Origin: Candidatus Levyibacteriota bacterium
GTDB lineage: Bacteria; Patescibacteriota; Microgenomatia; Levybacterales; UBA12049
Direction of reading: 5' to 3'
DNA: 64,000 nucleotides
NCBI GenBank assembly: GCA_052034235.1
Contig: JBPOIT010000008.1
Coordinates: 532-64,531, forward strand
Positions 1,125 to 64,000 of the stretch are shown one piece after another (the stretch's first letter is position 1; every line of letters starts with the position of its first letter). The position numbers and the translations under genes are program-made. The notes under the pieces were generated by a model. That model was given only the letters and a program-made list of their open reading frames with translations. It searched no databases and was not told the DNA's origin.

Positions 1125-2942
1125 TTAGAGTAAACCTTGGGCTTTCATGCGACGGGCGAGGACTTCGTCTAAGATTTTCTTTCTGATTCTGATATTGAGT
1201 GGTGTTACTTCAACAAGTTCGTCGTCATTTACAAATTCGAGTGAATCTTCAAGATCCATAATTTTTGGAACATTAAAATGTTCCATGCCACCATCACCTT
1301 TTGAACGCATGTTTGAGAGAGCTTTTGCTTTGGTGACATTCACTGTCATATCTTCACTTCTCGCATTTTCACCAACAACTTGTCCTTTATACACTTGTAC
1401 ACCAGGTCCAATAAAAAGCAAACCTCGCTCTTGAATGTTGGTTAACCCGTAGAGATTTGATTGTCCATTTTCACTTGCGATAAGTGATCCACGCTCACGT
1501 TTGATTGGTGCACCAGTATCTATATCAAATTTTTCAAAGTTGGTGTTAATAATACCTAAACCTCGAGTATCAGTAATAAATTCACTTCTGTATCCAAATA
1601 ACGCACTGGTTGGCATGATAAATTCGAAATAGACAATATTATTGTCATCTGTGGTCATATTCTCTAGAACAGCTTTTCTCACACCCATCTTTTGCATAAC
1701 AATTCCTGAATAATCTTGTGGTGCTTCTAAAAAGACTCGTTCAAATGGTGCCATCATTTTTCCATCAATTTTTTTCATAATAACCTGCGGGCGACTCACC
1801 TGAAATTCATAACCTTCGCGTCGCATGCGTTCAATCAAAATTGCTAAATGGAGTTCACCACGTCCTGAGACAAGCCATTTTCCGTCTTCAGTATCTTCAA
1901 CCCGAAGTGCAGTATCTGTTTCAAGTTCTTTAAACAGTCGCTCTCTAATTTGACGTGATGTTTTAAATTCACCTTCTTGTCCGGCAAATGGAGAATCGTT
2001 GACACTGAAAGTCATTTTCACTGTCGGCTCTTCAATTGCAAGAAGTGGCAATGCCACAGGATTAGTAACATCGGCAATTGTTTCACCGATTGTGATATCT
2101 GGAATACCTGAAATTGCCACAATATCTCCGGCAGGTACTTCTGTAGCGTCGACACGTCCCAATCCTTCAAACGTCATAAGTGAAGTAAGACGATGTTTTT
2201 TCATGTTTCCATCTCGCTGAATGTGCATGATTTCTTGACCGGCAGTTACTGTACCGTTATAAACACGACCGATTGCGATTCTTCCCTTATAATCATCACG
2301 ACCAAGCGTTGTCATTAGCAGTTGGAGTGGAGCCGTAGGATCACCAGATGGTGCTGGGACATATTTAAGAATTGCTTCAAAAATAGGGGAGATATCTGTC
2401 ATTGTTGTAAGATCCGGTTCAAGACCAGCTTTTCCTACTTTAGCTGACGCGTAAACGATAGGAAAATCAGCTGTCTCATCATCAGCACCAAGTTCTAAAA
2501 AGAGATCAAGCGTTTTATCATGAACATGGTGAATTCGCGCATCTGATTTATCGATTTTATTAACAACAACAATAATCTTTAATTTCTTTTCCAAAGCCTT
2601 CTTCAAAACAAATCGTGTTTGTGGCATAGGACCTTCTTTCGCATCAACCAGCAGCAAACAGCCATCTGCCATACTTAAAACTCTTTCAACTTCACCGCCA
2701 AAATCAGCATGCCCTGGGGTATCGATGATATTAATTTTGGTACCCTCCCAGTCAACCGATGCATTTTTTGAAAAAATGGTAATACCACGTTCGCGCTCTA
2801 GGTCATTACTATCCATGATCAGATCAGAGGATTCATTGTCTTTTCCAAGCTTTGTCTTTGACTGTCTCAAAAGCGCGTCAACGAGCGTTGTTTTGCCGTG
2901 ATCAACGTGAGCGATTATGCCTATATTTCGTATATTATTCAT
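1125..2942 (-). CDS. typA: translational GTPase TypA/BipA
   Basis: N-terminus IGIIAHVDHGKTTLVDALL with G1-G4 motifs. Length about 605 aa from the internal Met; the ORF-track start at 2972 is probably an N-terminal over-extension. Confidence 0.9.
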   Translation of the reverse strand: MNNIRNIGIIAHVDHGKTTLVDALLRQSKTKLGKDNESSDLIMDSNDLERERGITIFSKNASVDWEGTKINIIDTPGHADFGGEVERVLSMADGCLLLVDAKEGPMPQTRFVLKKALEKKLKIIVVVNKIDKSDARIHHVHDKTLDLFLELGADDETADFPIVYASAKVGKAGLEPDLTTMTDISPIFEAILKYVPAPSGDPTAPLQLLMTTLGRDDYKGRIAIGRVYNGTVTAGQEIMHIQRDGNMKKHRLTSLMTFEGLGRVDATEVPAGDIVAISGIPDITIGETIADVTNPVALPLLAIEEPTVKMTFSVNDSPFAGQEGEFKTSRQIRERLFKELETDTALRVEDTEDGKWLVSGRGELHLAILIERMRREGYEFQVSRPQVIMKKIDGKMMAPFERVFLEAPQDYSGIVMQKMGVRKAVLENMTTDDNNIVYFEFIMPTSALFGYRSEFITDTRGLGIINTNFEKFDIDTGAPIKRERGSLIASENGQSNLYGLTNIQERGLLFIGPGVQVYKGQVVGENARSEDMTVNVTKAKALSNMRSKGDGGMEHFNVPKIMDLEDSLEFVNDDELVEVTPLNIRIRKKILDEVLARRMKAQGLL

Positions 2943-3008
2943 AATTAAAAAAACCCCGCGCTGCGAGGCCATATAATGATACCATTTTACCCTATAAATA
3001 GCAATTTT

Positions 3009-3236
3009 TTACTTTTTTGACTTTTTAAAGCCCCACGAAATTTTATTCCAATATTCTTCGTGAAGATAGTAAAGTACCATAGCAACAGCGTTTCTAATGA
3101 TTGTAACCGTTAATGCCAACTGTAATTCTCTTGTTATTGCATAGACAATGATGCCATCTGCTGTAAGAATAAGAATACGAAACGTTAACGACTTTAAAGC
3201 GATACGTTTATTGGATTCAATTAGTCGGGCAAGCAT
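3009..3236 (-). CDS. small hypothetical membrane protein
   Basis: 75-aa ORF with hydrophobic segments, same strand as neighbours. No family recognised. Confidence 0.3.
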   Translation of the reverse strand: MLARLIESNKRIALKSLTFRILILTADGIIVYAITRELQLALTVTIIRNAVAMVLYYLHEEYWNKISWGFKKSKK

Positions 3237-3241
3237 GTTTT

Positions 3242-3511
3242 TTATTCTTCCTCTTCACGTTTGTGAACGTCAACTTGCCAATCATTGATAAGATATGCTG
3301 CAAGTCCAAGAGTTGCGATAATCGGGAGCGCTACTGCAGCAGCAATCCCTAATGTCATTGGAAAAGAAACAAATGGTCGTTGCTGTCTGTCTTTAATCGT
3401 CACATGGCGTTTATGACTTTCACGAGCGAGATGATTTACTTTATCTAAAACTCTTTGCGTATGAGCTTTGAGTTTTTCTTTATCTATTTTTTCTTTAATT
3501 GGTAGTTTCAT
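3242..3511 (-). CDS. hypothetical membrane protein
   Basis: 89-aa ORF with a charged N-terminus and one predicted TM helix (LGIAAAVALPIIATLGLAAYL). Confidence 0.4.
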   Translation of the reverse strand: MKLPIKEKIDKEKLKAHTQRVLDKVNHLARESHKRHVTIKDRQQRPFVSFPMTLGIAAAVALPIIATLGLAAYLINDWQVDVHKREEEE

Positions 3512-3531
3512 AGTTAAACAAACAGTTAAAC

Positions 3532-4353
3532 TTAATCACTCTTTTTTATTTTGCGTGCACCATCGACAATGCCATCCAGATCAGTATGTATTTCCATAGT
3601 CACCAAACCTTTATATTCCTCTCTATGTAGTAAATCAATAAATTCTTTCATTGGCAACATCCCTTTCCCAAGCGGCATATGTTTAAACCTCATAGGGCGC
3701 AGAGAATTATTAAACATGTGATGTTTGTAATCACTCAAGTGAATATTGACAATGTTTTCTTTGTTCTTTTTGAAGAATTTAATAATATCTCCGCCTGATT
3801 GTGCTAAATGACACGTATCAAGTGTCATAGAAAATCCAGCATTTTTGACAAATTCAGGAAATGATTCTTCATGCCAACCGTATTTACTGTTAAGATTCCA
3901 AAATTGTTTTTCACGATTCTCAAATCCAACGGTAATGCCATATTTTTCCTGAAGTTCGTGCAGTTTTGCAATGTATTTTTTATCGAACAATTGCTTCCCA
4001 ACAGTACTCATGTGCAGTACTATTACTTTAGCACCAAGGAGTTCTGCCTGATGAAAAAGCTCTGAGACCTCATCAATTTTTGTTTTCGTAAAGAAACGTA
4101 ATTTTTGATGTAAGCTTAGTACAGGCATATGATAGGTTTCGAGTATTTCCTTTAAATTAATAAGTTCTTTATCTGAAATAACACTAAATTGAGGAAGGAG
4201 GATTTCTACGCCATCAATCCCTGCTTTTTTTAACGTTTTAAAAACATGTTCGCGGGTTTGTCCGTTAAAGACCTTATTCTTAATAATTGCCCCATAAAGC
4301 CTGCGTTTTTCAGGCATAATTTCAGTTAAAAACAGCAGAGCTGAAGTTTTCAT
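3532..4353 (-). CDS. sugar phosphate isomerase/epimerase (xylose-isomerase-like TIM barrel)
   Basis: 273 aa with the general pattern of AP-endonuclease-2 / xylose-isomerase-like TIM-barrel proteins (GVEIL, HLSDY). Family call from overall similarity only. Confidence 0.55.
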   Translation of the reverse strand: MKTSALLFLTEIMPEKRRLYGAIIKNKVFNGQTREHVFKTLKKAGIDGVEILLPQFSVISDKELINLKEILETYHMPVLSLHQKLRFFTKTKIDEVSELFHQAELLGAKVIVLHMSTVGKQLFDKKYIAKLHELQEKYGITVGFENREKQFWNLNSKYGWHEESFPEFVKNAGFSMTLDTCHLAQSGGDIIKFFKKNKENIVNIHLSDYKHHMFNNSLRPMRFKHMPLGKGMLPMKEFIDLLHREEYKGLVTMEIHTDLDGIVDGARKIKKSD

Positions 4354-4441
4354 ATGGTAAAAATATTATACATAATAAATAAGGCTTTGCCAAAGTGTTC
4401 GTTTGACATTTTTTGGTAGTTGGAGTACTGTGTAAATACTT

Positions 4442-4771
4442 ATGCCTAGGAAATCATATTCACCATTTGGAAAATATTTTAATAAACTTGACGAAATTGA
4501 CAAGGATCTTAAAAACACCGAAGAATTTGGCTCATTTCTCATTCTGAGTCTCGTTGAAGAAGTAGGGGAGATGGCAAGAGCTTATCTTGCCAAACACGGC
4601 CGAAAACCCACGAATAAAGCTGCGCAACAGGATGAAACTTATAAACAGGAACTGGGAGATATTTTAGTTGCAATTATTCGTTTTGCCAGAATTAAAAATA
4701 TAAATCTTGATTCACGAATTATGTATACGTTAAAGAAAATTGAGAAGAGAAAAACAAATCCAAAGGTTTGA
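4442..4771 (+). CDS. MazG-like nucleotide pyrophosphohydrolase domain protein
   Basis: EExGE-type motif (LVEEVGEMARAY) and an all-helical 109-aa protein typical of the MazG family. Confidence 0.55.
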   Translation: MPRKSYSPFGKYFNKLDEIDKDLKNTEEFGSFLILSLVEEVGEMARAYLAKHGRKPTNKAAQQDETYKQELGDILVAIIRFARIKNINLDSRIMYTLKKIEKRKTNPKV

Positions 4772-9520: not shown

Positions 9521-10966
9521 ATGAAAAAGAAAGCTACTAAAAAAGTGAAAAGAATTAATAAAAAGAAAAATAACCGCTTTTTACCCATACTCTTTTTTGC
9601 ACTAGGCATAGTTGCAATAATTTCCACAGTTTACATCGTCACAACACAATGGACTGAACTCCGTTCTCGAGCTCAAACCTCGAAAGGTTGGCTTTCTGGA
9701 TCAAGTGACATTGCCGGAGAAATTGATGGCAAGCCTGAACCTGAAATGCACTGGCAAAAATTCGAAGCTTGGAGAGGTTCGCCTGTAACCATCGCAGGAA
9801 CATGGAGTGATGCAACAGCGGGCGATCAAGAAAACATGTGGGCTTACAATAATTATAAAGATTTTCCGCACAGTTTAGATCTTTCAGTTGGTGCATATTA
9901 TGACGGTGAATCCTTCGCAGCTATTGCAAATGGCAGTTTAGATACAAGACTTAAAAAAGCCCTCGCAAATGTTGATGCTAATTGGAATAGTAAGCCAATA
10001 ATTTTCCTGCGGTTTGCACATGAATTCAATGGCAGTTGGTATCGATGGTCAGTAAAAAGTTCCAATGTCGAAGATTATAAGAAGGCTTTTCAACATTTTC
10101 ACGCTTTGGTCCAGTCTGAACTTATCGCTAAAGGCAGGAATGCAAAAGTTGTATGGAGCCCAAATGATGGCAATCACAGTGATATAGCAATCCAGCAAAT
10201 GTGGCCAGGAGATCAATATGTCGATGTCATCGGAGTTGATTCGTATGATTGGGATCCACAAAGAAACGAATCAAACTGGGAAACTGCAGCAAATGCTATG
10301 GAAGGTGATGGCAGTCCAAGGGGTATTGAATCATGGAGAAAATTTGCCGAGTCAAAAGGGAAACCAATTTCTTTTCCTGAATGGGGATGTAATCCTGATA
10401 AAACAACTCCTCCAGTTGATTGTCCTTTTTATATCCAAAAAATGAATGACTATTTCAGAACTCACGCTGGAACTACAGCAGGGAAAGTATGGTATGAAAT
10501 ATATTTCAATAGTTATGTTGAGAAGACAAGAATCTTTCCAACAACGAAAGTTCCGCAGGCTGCTGCCATGTATCAAAGTCTGAAATGGGGAGATGGCGGC
10601 GTTGTCACAAATCCTTCAACGACACTTCCGAGCACAAACACACCTTCGCAAGCTTTCATAAGCGTATCTCCGCCATTTGTTTGCGGCGGTTCTCAGTACT
10701 GCGTACCTTCAACAACGGTACCTCCAGAAAATCCAGGAACAAATCCTCCTGTAGATATTTCACAAACGGTCAATCCAAGTGGTGTCGTTGAAAACCCGCA
10801 GGAGAATCCTGATGGTAATGATGACGAAGATAACAATGACAATGACGGAGATAATAACGGTAATGACAATGGTAACAATCACGGCGACGGCAAAGGCCTC
10901 TTCGATCTTTTACTTGAACTCTTCAGACTTATCATCGAATTCTTCATGAAACTCTTCGGAAAATAA
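9521..10966 (+). CDS. secreted/membrane-anchored GH26-like (clan GH-A) glycoside hydrolase with Asp/Asn/Gly-rich C-terminal tail
   Basis: N-terminal signal anchor. Motifs FLRFAHEFNGSWYRW (candidate acid/base Glu), WPGDQYVDVIGVDSYD and FPEWG (candidate nucleophile Glu). Low-complexity NDNDGDNNGND tail. Paralog of the ORF at 17479..19332. Confidence 0.55.
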   Translation: MKKKATKKVKRINKKKNNRFLPILFFALGIVAIISTVYIVTTQWTELRSRAQTSKGWLSGSSDIAGEIDGKPEPEMHWQKFEAWRGSPVTIAGTWSDATAGDQENMWAYNNYKDFPHSLDLSVGAYYDGESFAAIANGSLDTRLKKALANVDANWNSKPIIFLRFAHEFNGSWYRWSVKSSNVEDYKKAFQHFHALVQSELIAKGRNAKVVWSPNDGNHSDIAIQQMWPGDQYVDVIGVDSYDWDPQRNESNWETAANAMEGDGSPRGIESWRKFAESKGKPISFPEWGCNPDKTTPPVDCPFYIQKMNDYFRTHAGTTAGKVWYEIYFNSYVEKTRIFPTTKVPQAAAMYQSLKWGDGGVVTNPSTTLPSTNTPSQAFISVSPPFVCGGSQYCVPSTTVPPENPGTNPPVDISQTVNPSGVVENPQENPDGNDDEDNNDNDGDNNGNDNGNNHGDGKGLFDLLLELFRLIIEFFMKLFGK

Positions 10967-11973: not shown

Positions 11974-12568
11974 TTATGCTAACCAATCTTCTTTCGTCAA
12001 TTTATAAGTGTCATACCATGTTGACTCTCCAAGGTCAGGACCGTCATAATCTTCACGACCATATTGTTTAAAACTTGCATTCACAAGTACTGCAATTGAG
12101 CCTTTATTTTTGAGGCACGACTCTCGATTTAATAATCTCATAACCATTTTTTGAAAACGCCCATAGTAATACAACTTTTACAAGTGCGCTGGTTATGCCT
12201 TTACCCCACATATTTTTCTCTCCAATAATATAATTCAAGCACCCTGCTTTAACCCCAAATTCATTGGAGGTATCTTTTATATCGCTAATATTTATATTTC
12301 CAATAACTGTCCCATCACATTCAATAATCCAATTATATCCATCTATATTTCCCAAAATTTCTTTTAATCTATCCTTTTCACCTTCTAAAGAAACATCTGA
12401 AAAATCTGCACCTACATATTTGCCAACTTCATTGTCACTAACCCAATCAAGACTTTCCTTTGCGTATGCAATATCGGGTGTGAGTAATCGGAGTTTATGA
12501 AGTGAGTATTCAGGAACTGATAATTCTACATAACCTGGATGCGTATCGATATATTTTTGCTTATCCAT
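11974..12568 (-). pseudogene. GNAT family N-acetyltransferase interrupted by a frameshift at a T5/A5 homopolymer (about 12107-12111)
   Basis: GNAT motifs continue across two frames. Track ORF 12104..12763 ends ...KNGYEIIKSRVVPQK*. Track ORF 11974..12174 continues ...NKGSIAVLVNASFKQYGRE, the expected N..SI.V.EK.GF segment. Removing one A from the minus-strand CAAAAATAAAGG run joins them. Confidence 0.55.
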
Positions 12569-12689
12569 ACAAGAAGTATAGCAAATGAAGGTTTGGAAAA
12601 CTAAAAGTTCTACTGCTAGAGAGCCTTGACGATATTGGAACTTTTTTCTCTCAGAAAAAATTGCATTTGTATACTTTTGATCAAATTCT

Positions 12690-13547
12690 TTAATCTGCTT
12701 TAGGAATAAGATAGTCAGATACAGGTTCATCACCAGGTGGAAAAACTGTATTAAGTAATTCAATTAATTCATACTCATATTCTTTACCTTTAACGTGAAT
12801 ATAAATTGGAGATATCCGCATTTTCTCTTTATTCAAAATATAAAAGTAAACTAATACTGCACCTATAGAACTGCGTGAAAGTTCTCTATAGACTACCTCA
12901 ATTAACTCATCTTCTGTAGGTAGAGAATTCATTAAACCGAGATTATGCATAATATTTGTAATATTTATAACTACCGCCGTTTTTTTATCGTAATGTGGAT
13001 TAGAAAGTTTAGAGTTTAGAACCTCTGAAAGCTTATCTAAACTAATTACTTTTTTATTATATGTATATACATGGGCACTAGTGCATTCTATTTGAAGTTC
13101 TTTACCTTTAAATCTAATTAAATAATCCGGTGTTTCTCTTTTTTCAAATTCTATACTATATTTTATTAGTTGTGAGGCTACATGAACTTCGCAACGAAAG
13201 CCATAGTATTTAGTCTCTGTAATTTGATTATGTTGTAATAGGTCTACGTTCTTTGATCTCTTAACATTAGCGTATGCTTTATGCAACAGAGCGAGTTTTT
13301 TGACAATAGAGGGATCTTTATCATAAATAAGTTTTAATTCATCATTCAATGCAGAAATTAATGTAAACGACCATTCAAGTTCTTGAAATTTGTGTTTATT
13401 ATTTAATTCTATTAATTCGTGCAGATGCCTACCTACCATACTCCCTTGTCTATAGTGAGGAATAAAATTCTCTCCTAAATATTTACTTAAACTAGAAGAA
13501 ACTTTCGCTAAAGTACTGATAAAAGCCATCGAGTCAAAATAAGTCAT
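12690..13547 (-). CDS. hypothetical protein, 285 aa, immediately downstream of the OLD-family nuclease gene
   Basis: Strongly AT-rich gene on the same strand, 117 bp after the OLD-like gene. No recognisable domain. A possible but unconvincing PD...E motif (TPDYLIRFKGKELQIECTS). Confidence 0.5.
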   Translation of the reverse strand: MTYFDSMAFISTLAKVSSSLSKYLGENFIPHYRQGSMVGRHLHELIELNNKHKFQELEWSFTLISALNDELKLIYDKDPSIVKKLALLHKAYANVKRSKNVDLLQHNQITETKYYGFRCEVHVASQLIKYSIEFEKRETPDYLIRFKGKELQIECTSAHVYTYNKKVISLDKLSEVLNSKLSNPHYDKKTAVVINITNIMHNLGLMNSLPTEDELIEVVYRELSRSSIGAVLVYFYILNKEKMRISPIYIHVKGKEYEYELIELLNTVFPPGDEPVSDYLIPKAD

Positions 13548-13664
13548 TTTAATTATTAATATTTTTCTTATTAGCTACTTTTTATACTCTTCAAATTAAG
13601 TAAATCAAGAATAAACGTCAAACCCTAATAAAAGTGAAATTGCCGCTTGAATTTTCTTATGCCA

Positions 13665-15686
13665 TTAAGTTGAATTTAAAATTGAAATAAAATATTGACA
13701 AAGATAATTAGGAATATCATCATATTTAATTTTCTTACTAACATCAATTGCATTTTTAACTTTATTTACTCTGCTTGAATTTAAATTAGGAAATATATTC
13801 TCTAAAACACCTTCTTCGAGTATAAGTATTTTTTCTTCTTTACTAATTTCTTTAAATATATTCAATAATTCATCACTAATAGTAATCGGTGTATTTAACT
13901 GCGTTGCTCTTTCTGTGATTATATATTCAGCTATATCATTCATCTCTTTATTAAATTTTCGTGAGGTCATATTATTTTTATTCTTAATCAAATCAACTAC
14001 GGAGAGTGCATCTCTTCCATTAGTTTTACATAATATTTTTTTTAATTTATTTTCGGAAAATGTAAGTAGTTGGGAAATTTCAGAACTACCAGTTTCAATT
14101 TTGAGTCTTATCGCTTCATTATTTATTAAACGAGCTCTATCTTTACGAATTTCTCTAATATAATCTAAATCAGCAATTATAAAATTCGTTATCTTCCATT
14201 GATCTAATAATTCACGAAAACGATATAGGTTGTATTTGCTTCCTGCCTCAACTATTTCTACTTCTGCATCTGAACTAATTTCTTTTTTAATAATTTCTAA
14301 AATTTTGCTATACATTATTAAGTCTGATAGTCCTTCAACTAGTAATACTTTTTGTGTAAAGAATATTTTTTCATTATTTGTAGTATTAATATATTGAATT
14401 AGATCTTTTAGGTCTGTACTTTCAATTGATGCGTCTGGTTTTATTATATTGCTAATATTATCTTGCATATAAACCCTATAAACCTTTGCTAAAGTAGTAG
14501 TATTAATAAATTTAGGAGAATGTGTAACTATAAAGAATTGGATTTTGAATTCTTTACTCAATTCATCTATAAGCTCTATAATTACTTGTTGCCATTGAAA
14601 ATGCAGATGTAATTCTGGTTCATCTAATAATACGATGCCATTTTTGACTCCAGTTAATATTAAGCCACTAATTAAATTAAAGAGTTCTTTTTCTCCTGAG
14701 CTTAGCTTCATTGGAATTCCTGAAACTCTATAAAAATCCAGCTTGTACATATATTTATTTGGGTGGTTAATCTTGCTAACTGTGAAATTAACTTTTAAAT
14801 ACTTTAATAAATACTTTTTATAAGAATCTAGTAATTTAGATTTATGGTTCTTAAATAAATAAGCTAATTTTATAAATGAAGTATCTACAAAGGAAGTACC
14901 TATATCCCTGTTTTGGTTTATACTTTTTGCAAAATTATCTTCATAATTGGATAAGGCGCTTAAATCAATAATATTTGATGGTGAAGGTTGTGTTATCACT
15001 CTTTGAGGACCAAAATAACGTGTTACAGGATTTATGTCTAAATCAGGTATTAATATAGAAAGCTCATGAAATATATTAATATGCTTAAAAATTTCAAATA
15101 ATTTCTGTGATTTTAATAATTGCTCTGCATTAAAATTAGAGGAATCATTAATACTAAGATTAAAGGATTCATTCGCATGTAAAACTAAATTAAAGTCTTT
15201 TTCTATAAACTCACTAAAGCTAATTTCAGCTGGTATTCCATTCAATAATTCAATTAACTCTTGAGAATTGGCTACTGAAGCATATAAAAATTCTGCTATC
15301 TTTTCTTTTTTTAATATAATCTTATTAATAGTAGAAATATCTCTTCTAGATAATGATACTGTTAAAATAACACTTGAAGGCTCATTAGTATGCTCAAAAT
15401 GCTTATCTAATATGTTATTAATTAAATTGAATTGATCATGCTGATCAAAAGCTATGCTAAATAACTTATTTGAATCCGGATGGTTCATTTGTCTAAAATT
15501 CTGATTATTCTGAACCGTTACATGTTTAAACAGCACTGTATTAATAACCCCCTGAATAATTTCAAATAAATTTGTTTTCCCTCCAGAATTAGTTCCAACG
15601 AAAATATTTGTATCCATTTCAAATGAAATAATTTCCTCTGGATAATAACTCTTAATATTTTTGATTATTGCCTGACTTAAAATCAT
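13665..15686 (-). CDS. OLD-family ATP-dependent endonuclease (ABC-type ATPase + TOPRIM)
   Basis: Walker A GTNSGGKT, signature-like LSSGEKE, Walker B VLLDEPELHLH, H-loop VTHSP. C-terminal TOPRIM (LLVEGLSDL glutamate motif and IIADLD DxD motif). Very AT-rich. Confidence 0.75.
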   Translation of the reverse strand: MILSQAIIKNIKSYYPEEIISFEMDTNIFVGTNSGGKTNLFEIIQGVINTVLFKHVTVQNNQNFRQMNHPDSNKLFSIAFDQHDQFNLINNILDKHFEHTNEPSSVILTVSLSRRDISTINKIILKKEKIAEFLYASVANSQELIELLNGIPAEISFSEFIEKDFNLVLHANESFNLSINDSSNFNAEQLLKSQKLFEIFKHINIFHELSILIPDLDINPVTRYFGPQRVITQPSPSNIIDLSALSNYEDNFAKSINQNRDIGTSFVDTSFIKLAYLFKNHKSKLLDSYKKYLLKYLKVNFTVSKINHPNKYMYKLDFYRVSGIPMKLSSGEKELFNLISGLILTGVKNGIVLLDEPELHLHFQWQQVIIELIDELSKEFKIQFFIVTHSPKFINTTTLAKVYRVYMQDNISNIIKPDASIESTDLKDLIQYINTTNNEKIFFTQKVLLVEGLSDLIMYSKILEIIKKEISSDAEVEIVEAGSKYNLYRFRELLDQWKITNFIIADLDYIREIRKDRARLINNEAIRLKIETGSSEISQLLTFSENKLKKILCKTNGRDALSVVDLIKNKNNMTSRKFNKEMNDIAEYIITERATQLNTPITISDELLNIFKEISKEEKILILEEGVLENIFPNLNSSRVNKVKNAIDVSKKIKYDDIPNYLCQYFISILNST

Positions 15687-16268
15687 AAACGTAATTATAC
15701 TCCAGTATATTGACTATTACTATTTAAAATACTAAATTATTGTAAATCTTGTTTTTATAAGATATTTAGCACTTTTAAATTAAAAAATAATGAAGTGGAG
15801 GCTACCCCGAAACAGCCTCTTGTAGTCAAATAACATTCACTACGTAATGTAAGCAAAGGGACTTAAAGAATCTTTATGCAATAATAATGCTTAAAGTGTA
15901 AGCGCAAACCCTGTAAGACTATCGTAGAATAACGTATTCACTACAAAATACCTCCTAGGGGCATAACGAAAATCTTCAAAAATAATTATTTCTAATTATT
16001 TTTCGTTATGTCATACCACGTTTTAGATAACTCCAAAAAAACTAAATTACAAAAGTATCTTAAAAAAGCGTTCAGTCGTGAATTTTCTGATGTGGAAATT
16101 TTAGAAATTGAAAATTCTCTATATTTCTTTGCTAGAGTAAAAAATGAATACCTCAAATATAAGAAACGGGTTAGTCATGAAGAATAGTGAAGGGCTGACG
16201 GGCGTCAGCCAGTCGCCCCGCTTATTATACTTAAAAAAGTGGCTAAAAAACCTACTATTGATAACTTG

Positions 16269-16339
16269 CTACCGAGCCTGGATTCGAACCAGAATAAACA
16301 GCTCCAAAGGCTGTTGTCCTACCGTTAGACGACTCGGTA
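16269..16339 (-). tRNA. tRNA-Gln (anticodon UUG)
   Basis: Cloverleaf folded by hand: acceptor UACCGAG/CUCGGUA with U1-A72 and G73 (typical of bacterial tRNA-Gln), anticodon stem ACAGC/GCUGU, loop CUUUGGA, T-arm GGTTCGAATCC. CCA not encoded. Confidence 0.75.
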
Positions 16340-16474: not shown

Positions 16475-17320
16475 ATGATTATCTCAGAAAAGTATCGATG
16501 GAAAAAATTATTAGCTGTATCTGATGTTGCTACTGTAAATTTATATGCAGATCAGGCTGGAGGGGAAGTAGCGATAAAAGTAGCAAAGCGCTATTTCGAA
16601 GATTATATAGGCATTGAAGCAGGTGTCCTTAGCCGTCTAAATCACCCCTCAATAGTGAAATTTATAGAAACAGGTTTGTCAGAGGAGAGTAGACCAGCTT
16701 TGGTCACACGCTTTGTTTCATCAATTGGCTATGAAAGACTTCTTTCTTTACCGGTCGACGACGCGATTACGGTAATTGAGAATGCTGCAAATGGTCTTCA
16801 GGTCGTCCATGATAGTGGCATTGTGCACAGAGATATAAAGCCATCAAATTTTGCTGTACAACCAAACAAAGAAGTGACACTGTTAGATTTTGCGACATGT
16901 GCTCCAGCACCAGACGCATTAGATTTTAGACATAAATCAATACCCAACAGAGCAATTGGCACACCTGATTATATGTCTGCTGAAGCAATGGCTGGGCAGA
17001 TTTCACCTTCAGGCGATGTCTATTCCCTTGGAGTAGTAGCTTATGAATTTCTGACACGTTCACGTGCTAATAGAGTATCTCCTGGGAGTCCTATACAAAA
17101 GTATATTGCATCACACCAAGCAATCAGTCCACAGACTTACGAGCGAGATTTGGGCAGCAGACGAACAACAATATATGATGCCTTACAACACCCACTTTGG
17201 TCAGCACTTAAATTCGCCGACCAAAACCGTCCAAGTGCTGCTGCATTTGGGGCAGCAATGAGAGAAACCTATGAACAGGCAGCTGCAGAAAGCAGACGAT
17301 CTAGACAGATTGTTCTGTAA
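16475..17320 (+). CDS. stand-alone Hanks-type Ser/Thr protein kinase
   Basis: VAIK lysine (EVAIKVAK), catalytic loop HRDIKPSN, DFA (DFG-like) and TPDYMSAE (APE-like) motifs. 281 aa with no extra domains. Confidence 0.75.
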   Translation: MIISEKYRWKKLLAVSDVATVNLYADQAGGEVAIKVAKRYFEDYIGIEAGVLSRLNHPSIVKFIETGLSEESRPALVTRFVSSIGYERLLSLPVDDAITVIENAANGLQVVHDSGIVHRDIKPSNFAVQPNKEVTLLDFATCAPAPDALDFRHKSIPNRAIGTPDYMSAEAMAGQISPSGDVYSLGVVAYEFLTRSRANRVSPGSPIQKYIASHQAISPQTYERDLGSRRTTIYDALQHPLWSALKFADQNRPSAAAFGAAMRETYEQAAAESRRSRQIVL

Positions 17321-17478: not shown

Positions 17479-19332
17479 ATGAAAAAGAATACTGCCAAAA
17501 AATATTCATCGCGAGGTCGCACAAACTCCAGTCTAAAACTCCTCCCCATTGTCATTTTAGGCGCATCGCTTATTACAGGAGCTCTCGTTTTGGGAAAACT
17601 GACAACCGGCAATCAATCAGTCTCTCGTTTAACAGCTGAAGCTGCAGGAAATCGCTGGGAATCAGGAGCTTCTTGTGAAGGAGTCGCTAGCGGCACTTTT
17701 GGAACTTGGAGAGGCTCGCCAATGACCATAGCTGGAACGTGGAATGATGCCAGTTTGGCTGTACAAAAAGAACAATGGAGTATGTCATCAGGCGGTGAAT
17801 ATAAAAATTGGACTGAGAGTGTTGATAATGCTGTTGGGGCATTCTGGGGAAGTAACTGGCAGGCAGCAGCAAGAGGGGACCATGATGCAAATTTGCGAAC
17901 AGCACTTCAAGTTATCAATAATGGCTGGGGAAATAAAAAAACAGTTTATCTACGCTATGCGCATGAATTTAACGGCGATTGGTATCAATGGAAAGTGACA
18001 CCAGCTGACAATGAGTATTTCAAACAAGCATCTATTCGCTTTTATAATCTTGTCCAAACTGAACTCGTTGCCAAGGGGCGAGATGCAAAAGTAGCTTGGG
18101 CTCCAAATAGCGGTGAACATAATGGCATTAATACCGAGCTTAATTGGCCAGGAGACCAATACATCGATGTCATTGCAGTTGATTATTATGATTGGGATGT
18201 TCTAAATACTCAAGCAAAATGGGATGCCAACTTTATGAAAAAAGGCAGCAATGGCGGACCATATGGAATTGGTGCATGGCAAGATTTTGCTAGACGACAC
18301 GGTAAACCGTTGGCATTTTCTGAATGGGGAACAAGTGGTGAAAAGCCAACTGAAAATCCATTCTTTATTCAAAAAATGAATGAATTTATGACTGCAAATG
18401 CTGGAAACGGACCTGGACAAGTCGTTTACGATGTCTACTTCAACTGCACCGGTTATGGCGGAAGTGGCGGAGAAAAATTCCAAATTTTCCCAAACACCGT
18501 ATTACCTCAAACAGCAGCAAAATATAAAAGTTTGAAATGGGGATCAGCAATCATAGCAAGTGCCACACCTACTCTTGCGGTTATAGACACACCAACAACG
18601 GGACCAACAACACTTCCGACTGTTACAAGTACTATTCCAACACCAACCAATACGCCTGTTCCAACGGTAACGGTAACACCAACTCCCACACCTGCAGCTG
18701 CAACACCAATTGTTTACCGTTCAGCAACTTCAGGAAATAATGGCTCATCATCAAGAACTATTACGCTTACAAAACCTTCAGGAGTCGTTACAGGAGATAT
18801 TATGATCGCTCAAATTGCAGTTTTGACAGCTTCAACAACCATTACTCCACCATCAGGTTGGAAGCTCATCCGAAGCAATCAGACATCAGGTAGCATGAAA
18901 ATGTCCACGTATTACAAATTTGCATCAACACTGGAACCAGCTTCATATAACTGGTCATTTAACGCAACAAGAGCTGCGACAGGTGGTATCAGCGCATTTG
19001 GAGGAGTACATGCAACAAACCCAATTCAAGCATCAAGTGGCAAATATAATGACTCCACAGCAACGGTAAGCTTTACACAAGTGAACGCAAGTGTTGCTAA
19101 CGGATTAGTATTAGCATTTGTAAGTGTCTCTGGAAATACGACAGTTACACCACCATTAGGATACAACGAATATTACGATAAAAATAATACTTCTTCTCCA
19201 TCAAACGGAAAAACTGTTGAAATATCAAGCCAAATCAAAACAAATACCGGATCAACAAATGTTCCGTCTACACGAGAAGATTCACTGACAAAATCAAATC
19301 TCACCCAAGTCGTTGTACTTAGACCTCGGTAA
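17479..19332 (+). CDS. GH26-like glycoside hydrolase paralog with Thr/Pro linker and extra C-terminal beta-rich domain
   Basis: About 50% identical to 9521..10966 over the catalytic region (YLRYAHEFNGDWYQW, WPGDQYIDVIAVDYYD, FSEWG). Signal anchor, PT-rich linker, then about 200 aa of unknown domain. Confidence 0.55.
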   Translation: MKKNTAKKYSSRGRTNSSLKLLPIVILGASLITGALVLGKLTTGNQSVSRLTAEAAGNRWESGASCEGVASGTFGTWRGSPMTIAGTWNDASLAVQKEQWSMSSGGEYKNWTESVDNAVGAFWGSNWQAAARGDHDANLRTALQVINNGWGNKKTVYLRYAHEFNGDWYQWKVTPADNEYFKQASIRFYNLVQTELVAKGRDAKVAWAPNSGEHNGINTELNWPGDQYIDVIAVDYYDWDVLNTQAKWDANFMKKGSNGGPYGIGAWQDFARRHGKPLAFSEWGTSGEKPTENPFFIQKMNEFMTANAGNGPGQVVYDVYFNCTGYGGSGGEKFQIFPNTVLPQTAAKYKSLKWGSAIIASATPTLAVIDTPTTGPTTLPTVTSTIPTPTNTPVPTVTVTPTPTPAAATPIVYRSATSGNNGSSSRTITLTKPSGVVTGDIMIAQIAVLTASTTITPPSGWKLIRSNQTSGSMKMSTYYKFASTLEPASYNWSFNATRAATGGISAFGGVHATNPIQASSGKYNDSTATVSFTQVNASVANGLVLAFVSVSGNTTVTPPLGYNEYYDKNNTSSPSNGKTVEISSQIKTNTGSTNVPSTREDSLTKSNLTQVVVLRPR

Positions 19333-58842: not shown

Positions 58843-59175
58843 GTGCATAATTGCCACTATGAAAAAACTCAATTGGACTATTATAATTGTCGCTCTTCTT
58901 TTGAGCCTTGCATTACTTGGTTATGTCACCCTCAACTATATTTCAAACAAAATGAGCTAAGAGTTCAAAGAGACAATATTAAACTATTAGCCCTAAAGGA
59001 AACTGAGGTTAAAGAGTGTCTTCAAAAGGTAGAGAAGGATTATCTACGTAAGTATGATTTAGTGCCCACTAAGGACTATCCTGATGCTAGGAGATGGCAT
59101 AATGATGCAGTAGGTAAGGTTGTTGAGGAAAAATATAATAACGATCGGGATTTTTGTTTGAAGCTAAACAAATAG
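58843..59175 (+). CDS. hypothetical protein (possible frameshifted secreted protein)
   Basis: 110-aa ORF. A 33-aa signal-peptide ORF (MKKLNWTIIIVALLLSLALLG...) in another frame overlaps its 5' part. Confidence 0.3.
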   Translation: MHNCHYEKTQLDYYNCRSSFEPCITWLCHPQLYFKQNELRVQRDNIKLLALKETEVKECLQKVEKDYLRKYDLVPTKDYPDARRWHNDAVGKVVEEKYNNDRDFCLKLNK

Positions 59176-59513
59176 ATCTTGTTCTTAATTCTCTTTATCT
59201 TTTTGAATTCTACTATCCTGCAACACAACCAAATTTTCCTTACTCTAGCCGAATGATTTAATATTGCTTCTAGTTTATGATGAACTTGAAGATTTTTAAA
59301 CTTTAAAGGAGTAATTGTAAATAGCATCTGAATGCAATGCGGTTCTGCAAAGATATCGAGGAGTTAAGTAAATGTAATTTTAAAAGAGTAGTACATATCC
59401 TATGTATTAAGATTATACACCCACCTGATTAATAGGATAAAATTTAATATATTTTTAATCTATCTAAGCGATAATATGCGACGAGATATATAGTTAACTC
59501 TATTCAATCAAAA

Positions 59514-59810
59514 GTGAATTATCTTGCCATTATTAGTACGCTTGCCTTATTATTTGGGATCCCTAATGGCTGGGGATATGACTATTATGTTTTATTAAGA
59601 ATTCTTATCTTTACTTCTGCATCAGTTCTTGCTTTTAATCTGTATAAAAAAAATACATTTATAATAACTATTTTTCTTGTAATAGCAATTCTTTTCAACC
59701 CGTTCTTTCCGATCCATTTACATAAAAGTGCATGGATTATTATCGATTTTATATCTGCTATAGTATTTCTCTCTTCAGTTTCATTAACTAAAAATAAACA
59801 TGGAAAATAA
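59514..59810 (+). CDS. small membrane protein
   Basis: 98 aa with three predicted TM helices. AT-rich. Confidence 0.4.
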   Translation: MNYLAIISTLALLFGIPNGWGYDYYVLLRILIFTSASVLAFNLYKKNTFIITIFLVIAILFNPFFPIHLHKSAWIIIDFISAIVFLSSVSLTKNKHGK

Positions 59811-60243
59811 TTCTACAACAATTAATAGAAATGAAAGCGATTTGGCCATAGGTACATTTGTAGAAAAATGGCCAGAATGGATTAGGTGGATACTCTTCAT
59901 CCCTGCTTCTTTTATTGTTCCTATTCTATTTTTTGCCATTCAAAAATTTACTGCAGAATTATACATGGGCACTGATGGAGGGATAATAATGGATTTTTTG
60001 GGTAACATGATTATGGGTGGGGGCATTGTTGCAATCGGCGCCATGGTTGCTCCAAGAAACCAATTTTTTATTGGAATAATTATGCTTCTTCTTGTTACCA
60101 TATTGGGAATTCTAAGTTTATTTGGAGAGCTCTCAACCAATGAGATACATCCAGTTATGGCATTATTACATGTTATTTCGTTTGTAGGTTCTGGTGTTTA
60201 TGCGCTTAATTTTATACACAAGACTGAAAAGGGAGAGGAATGA
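59800..60243 (+). CDS. membrane protein
   Basis: 147 aa with four predicted TM helices. Overlaps the previous ORF by 11 nt. Confidence 0.45.
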   Translation: MENNSTTINRNESDLAIGTFVEKWPEWIRWILFIPASFIVPILFFAIQKFTAELYMGTDGGIIMDFLGNMIMGGGIVAIGAMVAPRNQFFIGIIMLLLVTILGILSLFGELSTNEIHPVMALLHVISFVGSGVYALNFIHKTEKGEE

Positions 60244-60731
60244 TATTAAAAAAAATTATTAAAGTTATATTTATTATTTTATGTTTGATTACTTGGGTAG
60301 GAGTATTCGCATTAGATGATTACACATGGCAGGATTCGTATATTAATAATAATGATTATTTTTTGTATAAAAAGTACAGTAACGTTCTGGATTTAACTTG
60401 CATTTACTGTTGGTTTAAACAACCAGTAAATAGCATAGGCCTTGTAGATAAAAATGAAACTAAGTATTTAGGTAATAATATATATTTCATTAAACTTATA
60501 TGGGTCAACAAAGAATTTGGTTCTAGTAAGAAAACAGAAGTCTTTAGTCATTTTACCGATTGCTATAACAAGAAAAATGGATGGTTAAAGAATGGTAATA
60601 ACATTCCAGACATCAATACAGATATGAGTACTGTAAAATGGTCAAGTTTTAGCGATAATAAAGAAGTCGACGACTCACAAGCACTTTATGAAGAACAATG
60701 TAAATTTCTCCAAGAAAGATTTAAAAAATAG
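60240..60731 (+). CDS. hypothetical secreted/membrane-anchored protein
   Basis: N-terminal TM/signal segment. Asn/Tyr/Lys-rich. No family recognised. Confidence 0.45.
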   Translation: MILKKIIKVIFIILCLITWVGVFALDDYTWQDSYINNNDYFLYKKYSNVLDLTCIYCWFKQPVNSIGLVDKNETKYLGNNIYFIKLIWVNKEFGSSKKTEVFSHFTDCYNKKNGWLKNGNNIPDINTDMSTVKWSSFSDNKEVDDSQALYEEQCKFLQERFKK

Positions 60732-60757
60732 CTTCATTTTTTTTATTAAGCGAGACT

Positions 60758-60898
60758 ATGAAACTTCCCAAAGGACTAAGTGTGGACAATAGATCCGTCG
60801 TTTGGAACCCAATCCTCGAATCTATCTTCATAGTATACCAGAAATTAGTAGATTATGGATTCATGTATTTTGAAGAAGGATACGGATGTAGAAAATAG
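60758..60898 (+). CDS. small conserved ORF (46 aa), leader module copy 1
   Basis: MKLPKGLSVDNRSVVWNPILESIFIVYQKLVDYGFMYFEEGYGCRK. Paralogous at protein level to the 39-aa ORF at 61706..61825; substitutions are mostly conservative, which argues for coding selection. Confidence 0.5.
   Translation: MKLPKGLSVDNRSVVWNPILESIFIVYQKLVDYGFMYFEEGYGCRK
60776..60886 (+). repeat. direct repeat copy 1 (about 110 bp, roughly 85% identical to copy 2)
   Basis: GTGGACAATAGATCCGTCGTTTGGAACCC...TACCAGAAATTAGTAGATTATGGATTCATGTATTTTGAAGAAGGA aligns with 61709..61810. Confidence 0.7.
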
Positions 60899-60959
60899 TA
60901 GTTAAATATATAAATCTTCAAGAGTTGAAAATACTATAAGTCTGTGATATGCTTCGGTT

Positions 60960-61697
60960 ATGGCTGAAAAATATTTCCCAGGTTTTGAATTTAGAAGGAA
61001 AGAACGAGTCAATCCAATAGAAATAGTTACTTTTGTTGCTGAAAGTGGAGCTGTGCATTCAAATCCAAGAGAAACAATTCGTTTAAGTGATTTATGTGAT
61101 CTGGAAGATATTGCTGAAGAATCAACTCCCAAAGTATGGAATCAAAACAAGCTTAATCAAGAATTCACAAGTCATTTAAATAGTCTGGGTAGACAAATTA
61201 AGCATCCAGGATTAACGATGAGGCAAAGAACTATGCAATTTGTTACTCGTGAAGCAATGAGACCGAAGAATGATATCGAGAGACAATTGTTAGTAGAAAG
61301 ATATGGAGACTATGTTGCTGATGGTGCAGCTGGGGATTGTACTCGTAATCCTAATGGAACTTTTACCTTGCGAATTGGCTTCTTAGGACAAGAAGATACT
61401 GCATCAAAAGAAGAAGTACTCGATGTAATGGCACATGAATATGGACATACACTCGGAAGTGACATTTCTGATCCTACTTTCGAGGAATTAAAGGCGTACA
61501 CGTTTGCAAGATTACTTATGAGACAGACTCAAGATGTAGAATATGGCGGTACTTTATTAGATAATTCTACAGTTCATAACACAGCGCAGTTATGGCTAGA
61601 ACAACTCGTAGCGAATGGTATTAGTGAAGAAAAAGTACTTGCCCATTTAACGGGTAATAAGTTTGGCACTTCCTATCCTGATGATTATCGTAAATAA
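60960..61697 (+). CDS. HExxH metallopeptidase-like protein (ImmA/IrrE-like?)
   Basis: 245 aa with MAHEYGHTLG (HExxH) and a downstream Glu-rich helix. No further family resolution. Confidence 0.5.
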   Translation: MAEKYFPGFEFRRKERVNPIEIVTFVAESGAVHSNPRETIRLSDLCDLEDIAEESTPKVWNQNKLNQEFTSHLNSLGRQIKHPGLTMRQRTMQFVTREAMRPKNDIERQLLVERYGDYVADGAAGDCTRNPNGTFTLRIGFLGQEDTASKEEVLDVMAHEYGHTLGSDISDPTFEELKAYTFARLLMRQTQDVEYGGTLLDNSTVHNTAQLWLEQLVANGISEEKVLAHLTGNKFGTSYPDDYRK

Positions 61698-62791: not shown

Positions 62792-63508
62792 ATGAAATCT
62801 CCTAATACCTCTTATGACCATATTCATATGAAAAATAGGAAACGAACTGAAGGCCCTGAATCCGCGTTAGTTGACTCATTTTTAATGTCATTCGAAGAGA
62901 TGTTTGGTGAAAAGGGTCTTAAATTTTCGGTTTTTATTGAACCCTATATCGATATCGGGTTTCCAGATATCATTGGTGTATTGTGGGATGAAAAATCGAC
63001 TAAAGTTTGGTCAAAAGAAAGAATGTTGATAAATAGTAAAGATATACGAATACTCAATCACTTAAGTTTACAAGATAAACTAAAAAGCGAACTTGATCTT
63101 CATAGGGAGTTGGGATATTCAGAAAGAGAAGTAGATAGAAGTATTACTCGGTTAAATAACGCTGGTTTAATTATTCCGACAAGAAATAAGTATAAAGCAT
63201 GTCCTCTTAAGAAAGTCTTTGCTCCCAGAAGAATAATTGCAATAGAGGCAAAAATGAGTGACTGGAAAGGTGCCTTTAGACAGGCAAGAATCAATAAATG
63301 GTTCGCTTCTGAGTCATATGTACTTTTCCCTGGTGAAGCTGCTAGAAAAGATATTCTTGATTATTCAAAATTTAGCCAAATTGGTGTAATAGCAAAAGAA
63401 AGGAATAATTTTGTACATCTTTCTAACTCAGAAAAAATAAACATTCCAACATCATACGGGTCATGGCTTATAAATGAATGGCTTATAAAATCATTATATT
63501 ATCAATAG
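62792..63508 (+). CDS. hypothetical protein with possible PD-(D/E)xK-like nuclease motifs and internal winged-helix-like segment
   Basis: 238 aa. Motifs EPYIDIGFPDIIGVLWDEK and IIAIEAKMSDW resemble PD...(D/E)xK. 1-nt gap to the downstream kinase gene. Confidence 0.4.
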   Translation: MKSPNTSYDHIHMKNRKRTEGPESALVDSFLMSFEEMFGEKGLKFSVFIEPYIDIGFPDIIGVLWDEKSTKVWSKERMLINSKDIRILNHLSLQDKLKSELDLHRELGYSEREVDRSITRLNNAGLIIPTRNKYKACPLKKVFAPRRIIAIEAKMSDWKGAFRQARINKWFASESYVLFPGEAARKDILDYSKFSQIGVIAKERNNFVHLSNSEKINIPTSYGSWLINEWLIKSLYYQ

Positions 63509-63509
63509 A

Positions 63510-64000
63510 ATGAGTAAATTAAATTTACAAGATGTATCAACTGCCTTTACCAATATAACTAATATCAAGCCTCTACCCTCAGGTGGTCAAAAACAAGTTT
63601 TTTCTGGAGAAAATAAAAACAATTCACTTGTAATTAAGTTATTGGATAGCATTAATAGCACAGAAAGACTACAACGAGAGATAGATGCTGTAAAAATATT
63701 AAATTCTGATAATATACCTAAAATACTGGGGCTTGGAGAAAAAGAAATAAATGGAGAAAAATATAACTACATAATCGAAGAATATATAGACGGAGAGGAT
63801 TTAGATAATCAACACAAAAAGGGTAATAAACTAAACCTTCAACAAATCGTAAATTGTTTGGAAACGATATTAGAAATATGTGTGAATGCAGAAAAAAAAG
63901 AAGTAGATATCGTTCACAGAGATATAAAGCCTGGGAATATTATACTAGATAAAAATGGTAAATTTTGGCTAATAGATTTTGGAATAGCAAGACATTTAAA
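63510..64000 (+). CDS. Hanks-type Ser/Thr protein kinase, 3'-truncated by the window end
   Basis: Gly-rich loop region, VIKLL lysine, HRDIKPGNIILD catalytic loop, DFGIAR. Runs off the window and is absent from the ORF track because it has no stop. Confidence 0.7.
   Translation, partial: MSKLNLQDVSTAFTNITNIKPLPSGGQKQVFSGENKNNSLVIKLLDSINSTERLQREIDAVKILNSDNIPKILGLGEKEINGEKYNYIIEEYIDGEDLDNQHKKGNKLNLQQIVNCLETILEICVNAEKKEVDIVHRDIKPGNIILDKNGKFWLIDFGIARHL

Follow-up and report, generated by a model that had tools for sequence, protein, structure and literature searches.

An OLD-family ATPase-TOPRIM nuclease gene and the gene of an uncharacterised protein family are most likely chance neighbours in an AT-rich islet beside tRNA-Gln

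Do two adjacent genes in the genome of a Candidatus Levyibacteriota bacterium form a new two-gene system of the OLD type, or do they simply lie side by side? The question is raised by a stretch of 64,000 nucleotides (nt) of contig JBPOIT010000008.1 (assembly GCA_052034235.1), hereafter the window, in which a gene for a 673-amino-acid (aa) OLD-family ATPase-TOPRIM nuclease is followed by a gene for a 285-aa protein of an uncharacterised family. An earlier note, made from the sequence alone, had offered two alternatives: a two-gene variant among OLD systems, or an OLD of Class 1 whose neighbour is unrelated cargo. Our analysis indicates that the two genes are most likely neighbours and not a new two-gene system, and we judge it probable that two independently acquired single-gene modules, both probably of a defence kind, have come by chance to lie next to one another in an islet beside tRNA-Gln. 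The positions of both open reading frames (ORFs), their shared strand and the 117 bp between them are as the earlier note gave them:

13665-15686, minus strand: gene for the OLD-family ATPase-TOPRIM nuclease, 673 aa (ORF, Pfam, PADLOC, AlphaFold2 (AF2) model, Foldseek)
13548-13664, minus strand: spacer from the OLD gene to the 285-aa gene, 117 bp, 23.9% G+C (sequence)
12690-13547, minus strand: gene for the 285-aa protein of an uncharacterised family (ORF, phmmer homologues, AF2 model)

The evidence that carries this reading is the absence of conserved linkage, seen from both genes. For the 285-aa family we assembled 32 loci (9 from species-representative genomes, 21 from metagenomes and the rest from direct contig look-ups); the genomes include Thermococcaceae, Halolamina, Neobacillus, Colwellia, Thauera, flavobacteria and an unclassified Proteobacteria metagenome-assembled genome. 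A profile made from as many as 120 OLD homologues, which scores 583 bits on the window, was run on all ORFs of these loci and found no OLD gene; 13 of the 32 loci extend at least 2 kb upstream of the family gene, and about as many extend at least 2 kb downstream. The genes adjoining family members vary and include housekeeping genes; they are DDE transposases (L015, L042), integrases (L012, L017), a HigB/helix-turn-helix pair (L011), YaaC (L031), ppk/ppx (L021) and a penicillin-binding protein (L015), and beyond near-identical contigs no neighbour recurs among the family loci.

Seen from the OLD gene, the picture is the same. A profile of the 285-aa family detected no member in eight independent OLD-homologue contexts, seven at 40-52% identity to the window protein and one at 33% (best non-self match, E=0.44). 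One more locus, L043, does carry the OLD/285-aa pair, but because it is the same locus of the same organism in another sample, it is not an independent observation. Linkage in other genomes, which the earlier note had named as the check on its proposal, was therefore seen in 0/32 family loci and 0/8 OLD-homologue loci, and its absence supports the reading of a Class 1 OLD with an unrelated neighbour; of the note's two alternatives, this one stands and the two-gene system does not. Composition points the same way: OLD homologues lie 3-15 G+C points below their own flanks in all eight comparisons, and family genes lie below flank G+C in six of eight long loci (for example, 47% vs 65% in Halolamina and 45% vs 61% in Thauera), a pattern characteristic of accessory genes that were transferred independently.

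Several observations nevertheless weigh against this reading, and some of them speak for a lineage-restricted two-gene system, in which the OLD and 285-aa genes would be co-transcribed and their products would cooperate (for example, by sensing or nicking on the part of the OLD protein and degradation by its partner), in a pairing that arose recently in this organism's lineage. Because the genes share a strand and an AT-rich composition and are separated by only 117 bp, in which no terminator-like hairpin was found, co-transcription is possible, and the same arrangement is present in the second sample (L043). The closest relatives of the window's 285-aa protein (P0122 and P0123, 32-33% identity) are on contigs too short for a linkage test, and the family loci were retrieved by the peptide ALF[IV]DITN, where the window protein has AVVINITN. 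The independent OLD contexts number only eight. The islet, moreover, is unmarked as a mobile element: no integrase was found for it, and no convincing attachment (att) repeat was found around it. Against a two-gene system stands the lack of any co-occurrence in the two sets of loci, even at 40-52% OLD identity; in addition, the family is clearly viable alone elsewhere, and L043 repeats the same locus. We consider a cooperating pair improbable, and we infer that the two proteins are functionally independent at this locus, as we infer that either is active as a nuclease and serves in defence; what the data show are the domain identities, the conserved catalytic residues, the predicted folds and the lack of conserved linkage.

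The genes found downstream of the OLD homologues raise a different alternative. They encode a 227-aa membrane protein in L001, a 288-aa unknown protein in L009, a DUF5677 protein in L010 and a Fic protein in L045, the last 261 bp downstream of the OLD gene; L005 and L006 have ORFs of 74-95 aa, and L004 and L008 have convergent relaxase-like or integrase genes. With the window included, four of nine contexts (the window, L001, L009 and L010) have a same-strand gene for a 227-288-aa protein less than 120 bp downstream of OLD (at 30-117 bp). This frequency also counts against two unrelated modules, and it keeps alive a model in which the ~670-aa OLD clade would be a sensor/ATPase module with interchangeable downstream effectors. 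However, the downstream proteins are mutually unlike, with no similarity detected among them or to the 285-aa protein, and none matches a PADLOC model; four contexts have no such gene, a convergent one or a tiny one; independent cargo in defence or mobile islands would be expected to have variable neighbours; and Class 1 OLDs are known to act alone (PMC12392090). We regard interchangeable effectors as very doubtful. The more far-reaching proposition, that a modular OLD platform with swappable partners constitutes a new OLD context class and, separately, that the 285-aa family is an unrecognised anti-phage nuclease family of single genes, spread over Bacteria and Archaea, is in our estimate a long shot.

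Some further features of these loci are recorded in their own right. Homologues of the OLD clade adjoin restriction-modification (R-M) genes (MmeI-type in L004, type III-like in L010), serine/tyrosine recombinases (L001, L006, L008) and the Fic gene of L045; these surroundings disagree with a review according to which OLD genes of Class 1 do not occur near other defence genes. In the family locus of Neobacillus sp. (L014), 2.4 kb separate the family member from two genes that match the PADLOC candidate-system models BnzB and PDC-M09A/B (2007-4555, minus strand; E=1e-106 and 8e-73). In a divergent flavobacterial branch, a same-strand ORF lies 10-40 bp upstream of the family gene (L019:6008-6847, L020:47-544, L039:102-716); these ORFs, which resemble one another weakly (38% over 55 aa), match nothing in Pfam or PADLOC and could be a branch-specific partner.

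What, then, is each of the two modules? The larger protein has the following parts:

14427-15686, minus strand: ABC-type ATPase region with a large inserted domain, aa 1 to ~420 (alignment, phmmer to 6p74)
14163-14363, minus strand: TOPRIM core, aa 442-508 (PF20469 match)
13827-14162, minus strand: helical insertion of ~110 aa, aa ~509-620 (alignment, AF2 helices 507-618)

That it is a full-length OLD-family ATPase-TOPRIM nuclease, as the earlier note had read from its motifs, is supported by Pfam, by PADLOC and by a structure model. The Pfam families AAA_21, SMC_N and AAA_15 match over residues 1-410 and OLD-like_TOPRIM (PF20469) matches at residues 442-508 (E=1.2e-12), and the top PADLOC model is Old (E=1.4e-23), with GajA and AriA models next. 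Every motif quoted in the note was located: GTNSGGKT at 31-38, LSSGEKE at 328-334, DEPE at 355-358 and VTHSP at 387-391 in the ATPase, and LLVEGLSDL at 448-456 and IIADLD at 503-508 in the TOPRIM domain. The AF2 model (predicted local distance difference test (pLDDT) score 86.4) matches GajA (E=1.7e-15), the OLD of Thermus scotoductus (TsOLD; E=3.7e-14; template-modelling (TM) score 0.53 to target) and the retron-Eco8 OLD (E=4e-14) about equally in Foldseek; the structure confirms the family and leaves the class unassigned.

The catalytic residues are conserved. The ATPase contains the Walker A lysine K37, the signature residues S329-S330-G331, the Walker B pair D355/E356, a D-loop histidine (H362) and an H-loop histidine (H389), and an alignment of 33 homologues has K37, S329/S330/G331/E334, D355/E356, H362, H389, E451, D455 and D506 invariant and D508 conserved in at least 90%. 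All four TOPRIM acidic residues (E451, D455, D506, D508) are thus present, so the loss that the earlier note had thought might undo its assignment was not seen. In a phmmer alignment to TsOLD (6p74), H362 corresponds to Ts H283 of the D loop, H389 to Ts H310 of the H loop, E451 to Ts E377 and D455 to Ts D381; in TsOLD, the equivalents are ATPase residues and ligands of metals A and B that have been probed by mutation (PMC7049728). By homology, E451 and D506-x-D508 are predicted ligands of metal A, and D455 is a predicted ligand of metal B. The two closest homologues differ at this site: P0003 and P0005 (52% and 49% identity; L004:5426-7444 and L001:6001-8019) have the sequence ADLGY in place of the ADLDY of the window protein, and with the second aspartate of the DxD motif lost, they may be catalytically altered.

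The earlier note had also described an extra C-terminal region of about 100 aa. Additional material of about that length exists, but it is mainly the helical insertion at 509-620, with a tail of ~40 aa after it. The insertion is conserved across the ~670-aa OLD clade, contains an invariant D559 and sits between the DxD motif and a conserved G626-x-x-E629 motif (nt 13800-13811), which the tail follows. Some PADLOC GajA models align to residue ~650 of the protein, whereas PF20469 stops at 508. By alignment only, D559 and G626-x-x-E629 are candidates for the equivalents of TsOLD S478/E480 (metal B) and R487 (the transition-state Arg/Lys).

The 285-aa protein is more elusive. It has no match in scans of Pfam, PADLOC, NCBIfam or PHROGs, and a word-seeded protein search with it as query returned the protein itself alone; the same search with the family alignment added one more member, P0171. 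However, it is not the ORFan that the note had taken it to be, because an exhaustive phmmer search of 1.84 billion representatives found 299 homologous cluster representatives at E<=1e-3, 112 of them at E<=1e-10. Family members are mostly 260-270 aa long, share 25-33% identity and come from Bacteria and Archaea. An alignment of 50 sequences shows E120, D141, E154 and K180 to be invariant and G116, R118, P140, C155, K172, Y185, D195, T197 and N198 to be nearly so. These residues fall largely in one region of the AF2 model built from the family alignment (pLDDT 91.9; predicted TM score 0.91):

12954-13241, minus strand: predicted nuclease core, aa 103-198 (AF2 secondary structure and conservation)

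In the model, an N-terminal helical bundle is followed by a helix (103-129) bearing E120, by strands at 133-136, 142-146 and 149-157, by a helix at 171-181 and by a last strand at 190-195. P140-D141 precede the strand 142-146, E154-C155 lie in the strand 149-157, K172 and K180 are on the helix 171-181, and the last core strand ends in D195-x-T197-N198. This predicted order of helix-strand-strand-strand-helix-strand is the topology of the PD-(D/E)xK type.

Comparisons with known proteins give hints in the same direction. A profile search of the PDB with the family returned nothing and Foldseek searches of PDB and BFVD with the model nothing significant, but the tail of the Foldseek lists is enriched for PD-(D/E)xK enzymes: these comprise lambda exonuclease, Hjc, I-Ssp6803I, LmuA, YaeQ, HindIII, MGME1 and McrC, together with phage entries labelled 'restriction endonuclease' and 'PD-(D/E)XK'. 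At the level of sequence, Pfam Card1_endonuc weakly matches 2 of the 50 aligned members and the PADLOC model PD-T7-1 (PDLC04073) 3 of the 50 (best E=1.2e-4), the window protein itself being unmatched. P0123 weakly matches PD-T7-5 over the core (residues 116-178), and a core match to PD-T7-5 is all that PADLOC scans of 20 family members returned. PD-T7-1 (of E. coli ECOR46, RCQ85672.1) and PD-T7-5 are listed among validated defence systems of one gene each, under the label 'Nuclease' (PMC9519451, Vassallo et al. 2022), and by HHpred PD-T7-1 itself has only a weak Hjc/PDDEXK_5-like core (PMC9519451 Table S3).

On these observations we take the 285-aa protein to be probably a nuclease with a PD-(D/E)xK fold, from a family not yet described, its place in the superfamily being tentative. 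Against this, the lysine of the canonical (D/E)xK motif is missing, since two residues after E154 the family has T, S or G, and there is no significant match in sequence or fold to a known nuclease. The invariant K180 and the near-invariant K172 lie on the helix after the E154 strand. Migration of active-site residues occurs in the PD-(D/E)xK superfamily. The same two points favour a further alternative, in which the protein would not be a defence nuclease but either an inactive or non-catalytic PD-(D/E)xK-like fold (for example, a regulatory or DNA-binding protein) or a mobile-element nuclease, and the OLD gene would be the only defence gene at the locus. The lack of any significant defence-model match, the transposases and integrases that adjoin several family members, and the absence of matches in phage and plasmid collections (tblastn) fit this alternative as well. 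A scan of viral contigs for loci of the family had no match. The four invariant charged residues, however, stand at positions expected of a metal-dependent active site, the weak matches to PD-T7-1, PD-T7-5 and Card1 nuclease models are repeated ones, and a sporadic cross-phylum distribution with AT-rich composition is typical of defence or accessory genes. We think this alternative unlikely. A further candidate role, that of an R-M endonuclease, was rejected, as no methyltransferase adjoins the family gene in the loci examined.

If the two genes are separate single-gene modules, as we favour, each would act alone. The OLD protein would use its ABC-type ATPase as a probable sensor or regulator and its TOPRIM domain to nick or degrade DNA by two-metal catalysis, with E451, D506 and D508 binding metal A and D455 binding metal B. 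The 285-aa protein would most likely be a stand-alone metal-dependent nuclease and is plausibly a single-gene defence or mobile-element gene.

Three further features lie in or beside the islet that holds both genes:

12104-12570, minus strand: GNAT acetyltransferase gene (Pfam Acetyltransf_3, E=1.3e-11)
15687-16267, no strand: non-coding stretch of 581 bp from the OLD start codon to the tRNA (sequence)
16268-16339, minus strand: tRNA-Gln (TTG) (ARAGORN; Rfam tRNA, 59 bits)

The very AT-rich island that the earlier note had pointed out is borne out by composition: the OLD gene has 25.7% G+C, the 285-aa gene 29.7% and the island as a whole (12104-16267) 28.2%, against 37.8% in the remaining window. 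The islet measures roughly 4.2 kb and adjoins tRNA-Gln; because the 3' end of the tRNA faces the island, the tRNA is likely an insertion landmark. At the other end, the GNAT gene, whose start we set at the ATG at 12570, lies 119 bp downstream of the 285-aa gene on the same strand, has an intermediate G+C content (33.6%) and keeps its place in the same order in L043; it is possibly part of the islet. The spacer between the OLD and 285-aa genes has promoter-like matches at the chance level for the region. A direct repeat of the att type, copying the 3' end of the tRNA, was considered as well, but the sole flanking pair (13/14 nt, at 12009 and 16009) is chance-like in AT-rich DNA and was discarded.

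Other features of the window were noted in passing. Between the OLD gene and the tRNA are two GC-rich hairpin-forming sequences, GGCTGAC-GGGC-GTCAGCC at 16191-16211 and GAGGCT-N10-AGCCTC at 15797-15822, neither of which matches an Rfam family. The islet and tRNA are flanked by genes for paralogous secreted proteins (9521-10966 and 17479-19332, both plus strand), which both have an N-terminal membrane anchor, share 39% identity over 381 aa and carry the label GH26 in the gene table of L043. Just past the tRNA is a Ser/Thr-kinase-like ORF of 281 aa (16475-17320, plus strand); a kinase gene is also near the OLD homologue in L045 (76-2172), which is probably coincidental. Lastly, positions 59000-61000 and 63000-64000 have low G+C (30-31% vs ~38%) and several plus-strand ORFs of 146-245 aa, and they may be other acquired segments.

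If the two genes are indeed chance neighbours, the locus adds little: a further OLD of Class 1, belonging to a divergent clade of long proteins, in a tRNA-adjacent islet. That clade appears to be common in small-genome uncultured bacteria. The most useful by-product of the analysis is the undescribed 285-aa family itself. Its ~300 clusters share an invariant E/D/E/K set, placed on a confidently predicted nuclease-like core; it is missing from Pfam, NCBIfam, PADLOC and PHROGs; and its members are dispersed over Bacteria and Archaea, in neighbourhoods that are AT-rich and mobile-element-rich. It can reasonably be put forward as a candidate for a new family of single-gene nucleases that serve defence or mobile elements.

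How does the window OLD compare with the known systems? The published OLD classes follow genomic context: a lone gene makes Class 1, a UvrD-like helicase downstream marks Class 2, a retron reverse transcriptase (RT) with a non-coding RNA (ncRNA) marks Class 3, and in Class 4 the protein is split into AriA and AriB (PMC10568477, PMC12392090). The window OLD is Class 1 by this measure, because ATPase and TOPRIM are fused, library scans give no helicase match for the downstream gene, and neither RT nor ncRNA was found nearby; within Class 1 it is atypical. Specifically, Class 2 (Gabija) is ruled out by that lack of a helicase match and by Old being the best PADLOC model, and in the eight OLD-homologue contexts too no helicase adjoins the OLD gene. 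Class 3 (retron) is ruled out as well, with no RT ORF in 8-21 kb of the window and no ncRNA family other than tRNA-Gln in 10-19 kb (Rfam, E<=1). Class 4 (PARIS) is excluded by the fusion of ATPase and TOPRIM and by a neighbour that is not a TOPRIM/DUF4435 protein.

Like the other Class 1 OLDs (P2 Old, TsOLD (6P74), Vc OLD of Vibrio cholerae and E. coli YbjD), the window OLD lacks a helicase, RT or ncRNA partner, and it shares with TsOLD the equivalents of the metal ligands (E451, D455, D506, D508) and the D-loop and H-loop histidines. There are also differences. The 6p74 chain is 528 aa long against 673 aa, with a smaller insert in the ATPase domain; TsOLD has no C-terminal helical domain (PMC7049728), whereas the window OLD has the ~110-aa helical insertion and the tail; and the window OLD has a canonical LSSGEKE signature, where that of Class 1 homologues is reported to be degenerate (PMC7049728). 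Nor does it have the compact TOPRIM of TsOLD, which is a structural trait and not a definition of the class. Sequence identity to the PDB entries is low. Because the canonical signature and the helical insertion after the DxD motif set this clade apart from the solved Class 1 example, the split by genomic context hides structural diversity.

The resemblances to OLD proteins of other classes are partial. Gabija GajA (PDB 8X5I, 8SM3), of Class 2, is the top Foldseek match and comes after Old among the PADLOC models, and extra helical material around the TOPRIM domain is common to both proteins. The ATPase domain also matches AriA models (E=4e-20) and AriA structures of PARIS, but these matches stop at about residue 395. 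The 285-aa family, for its part, resembles PD-(D/E)xK nucleases in the topology of its predicted core and in the placement of the acidic residues D141 and E154. Its likeness to PD-T7-1, a protein of about 450 aa against 285 aa, is by PADLOC model only; PD-T7-1 and PD-T7-5 are single genes, and the 285-aa family is likewise found as a single gene in variable or mobile neighbourhoods.

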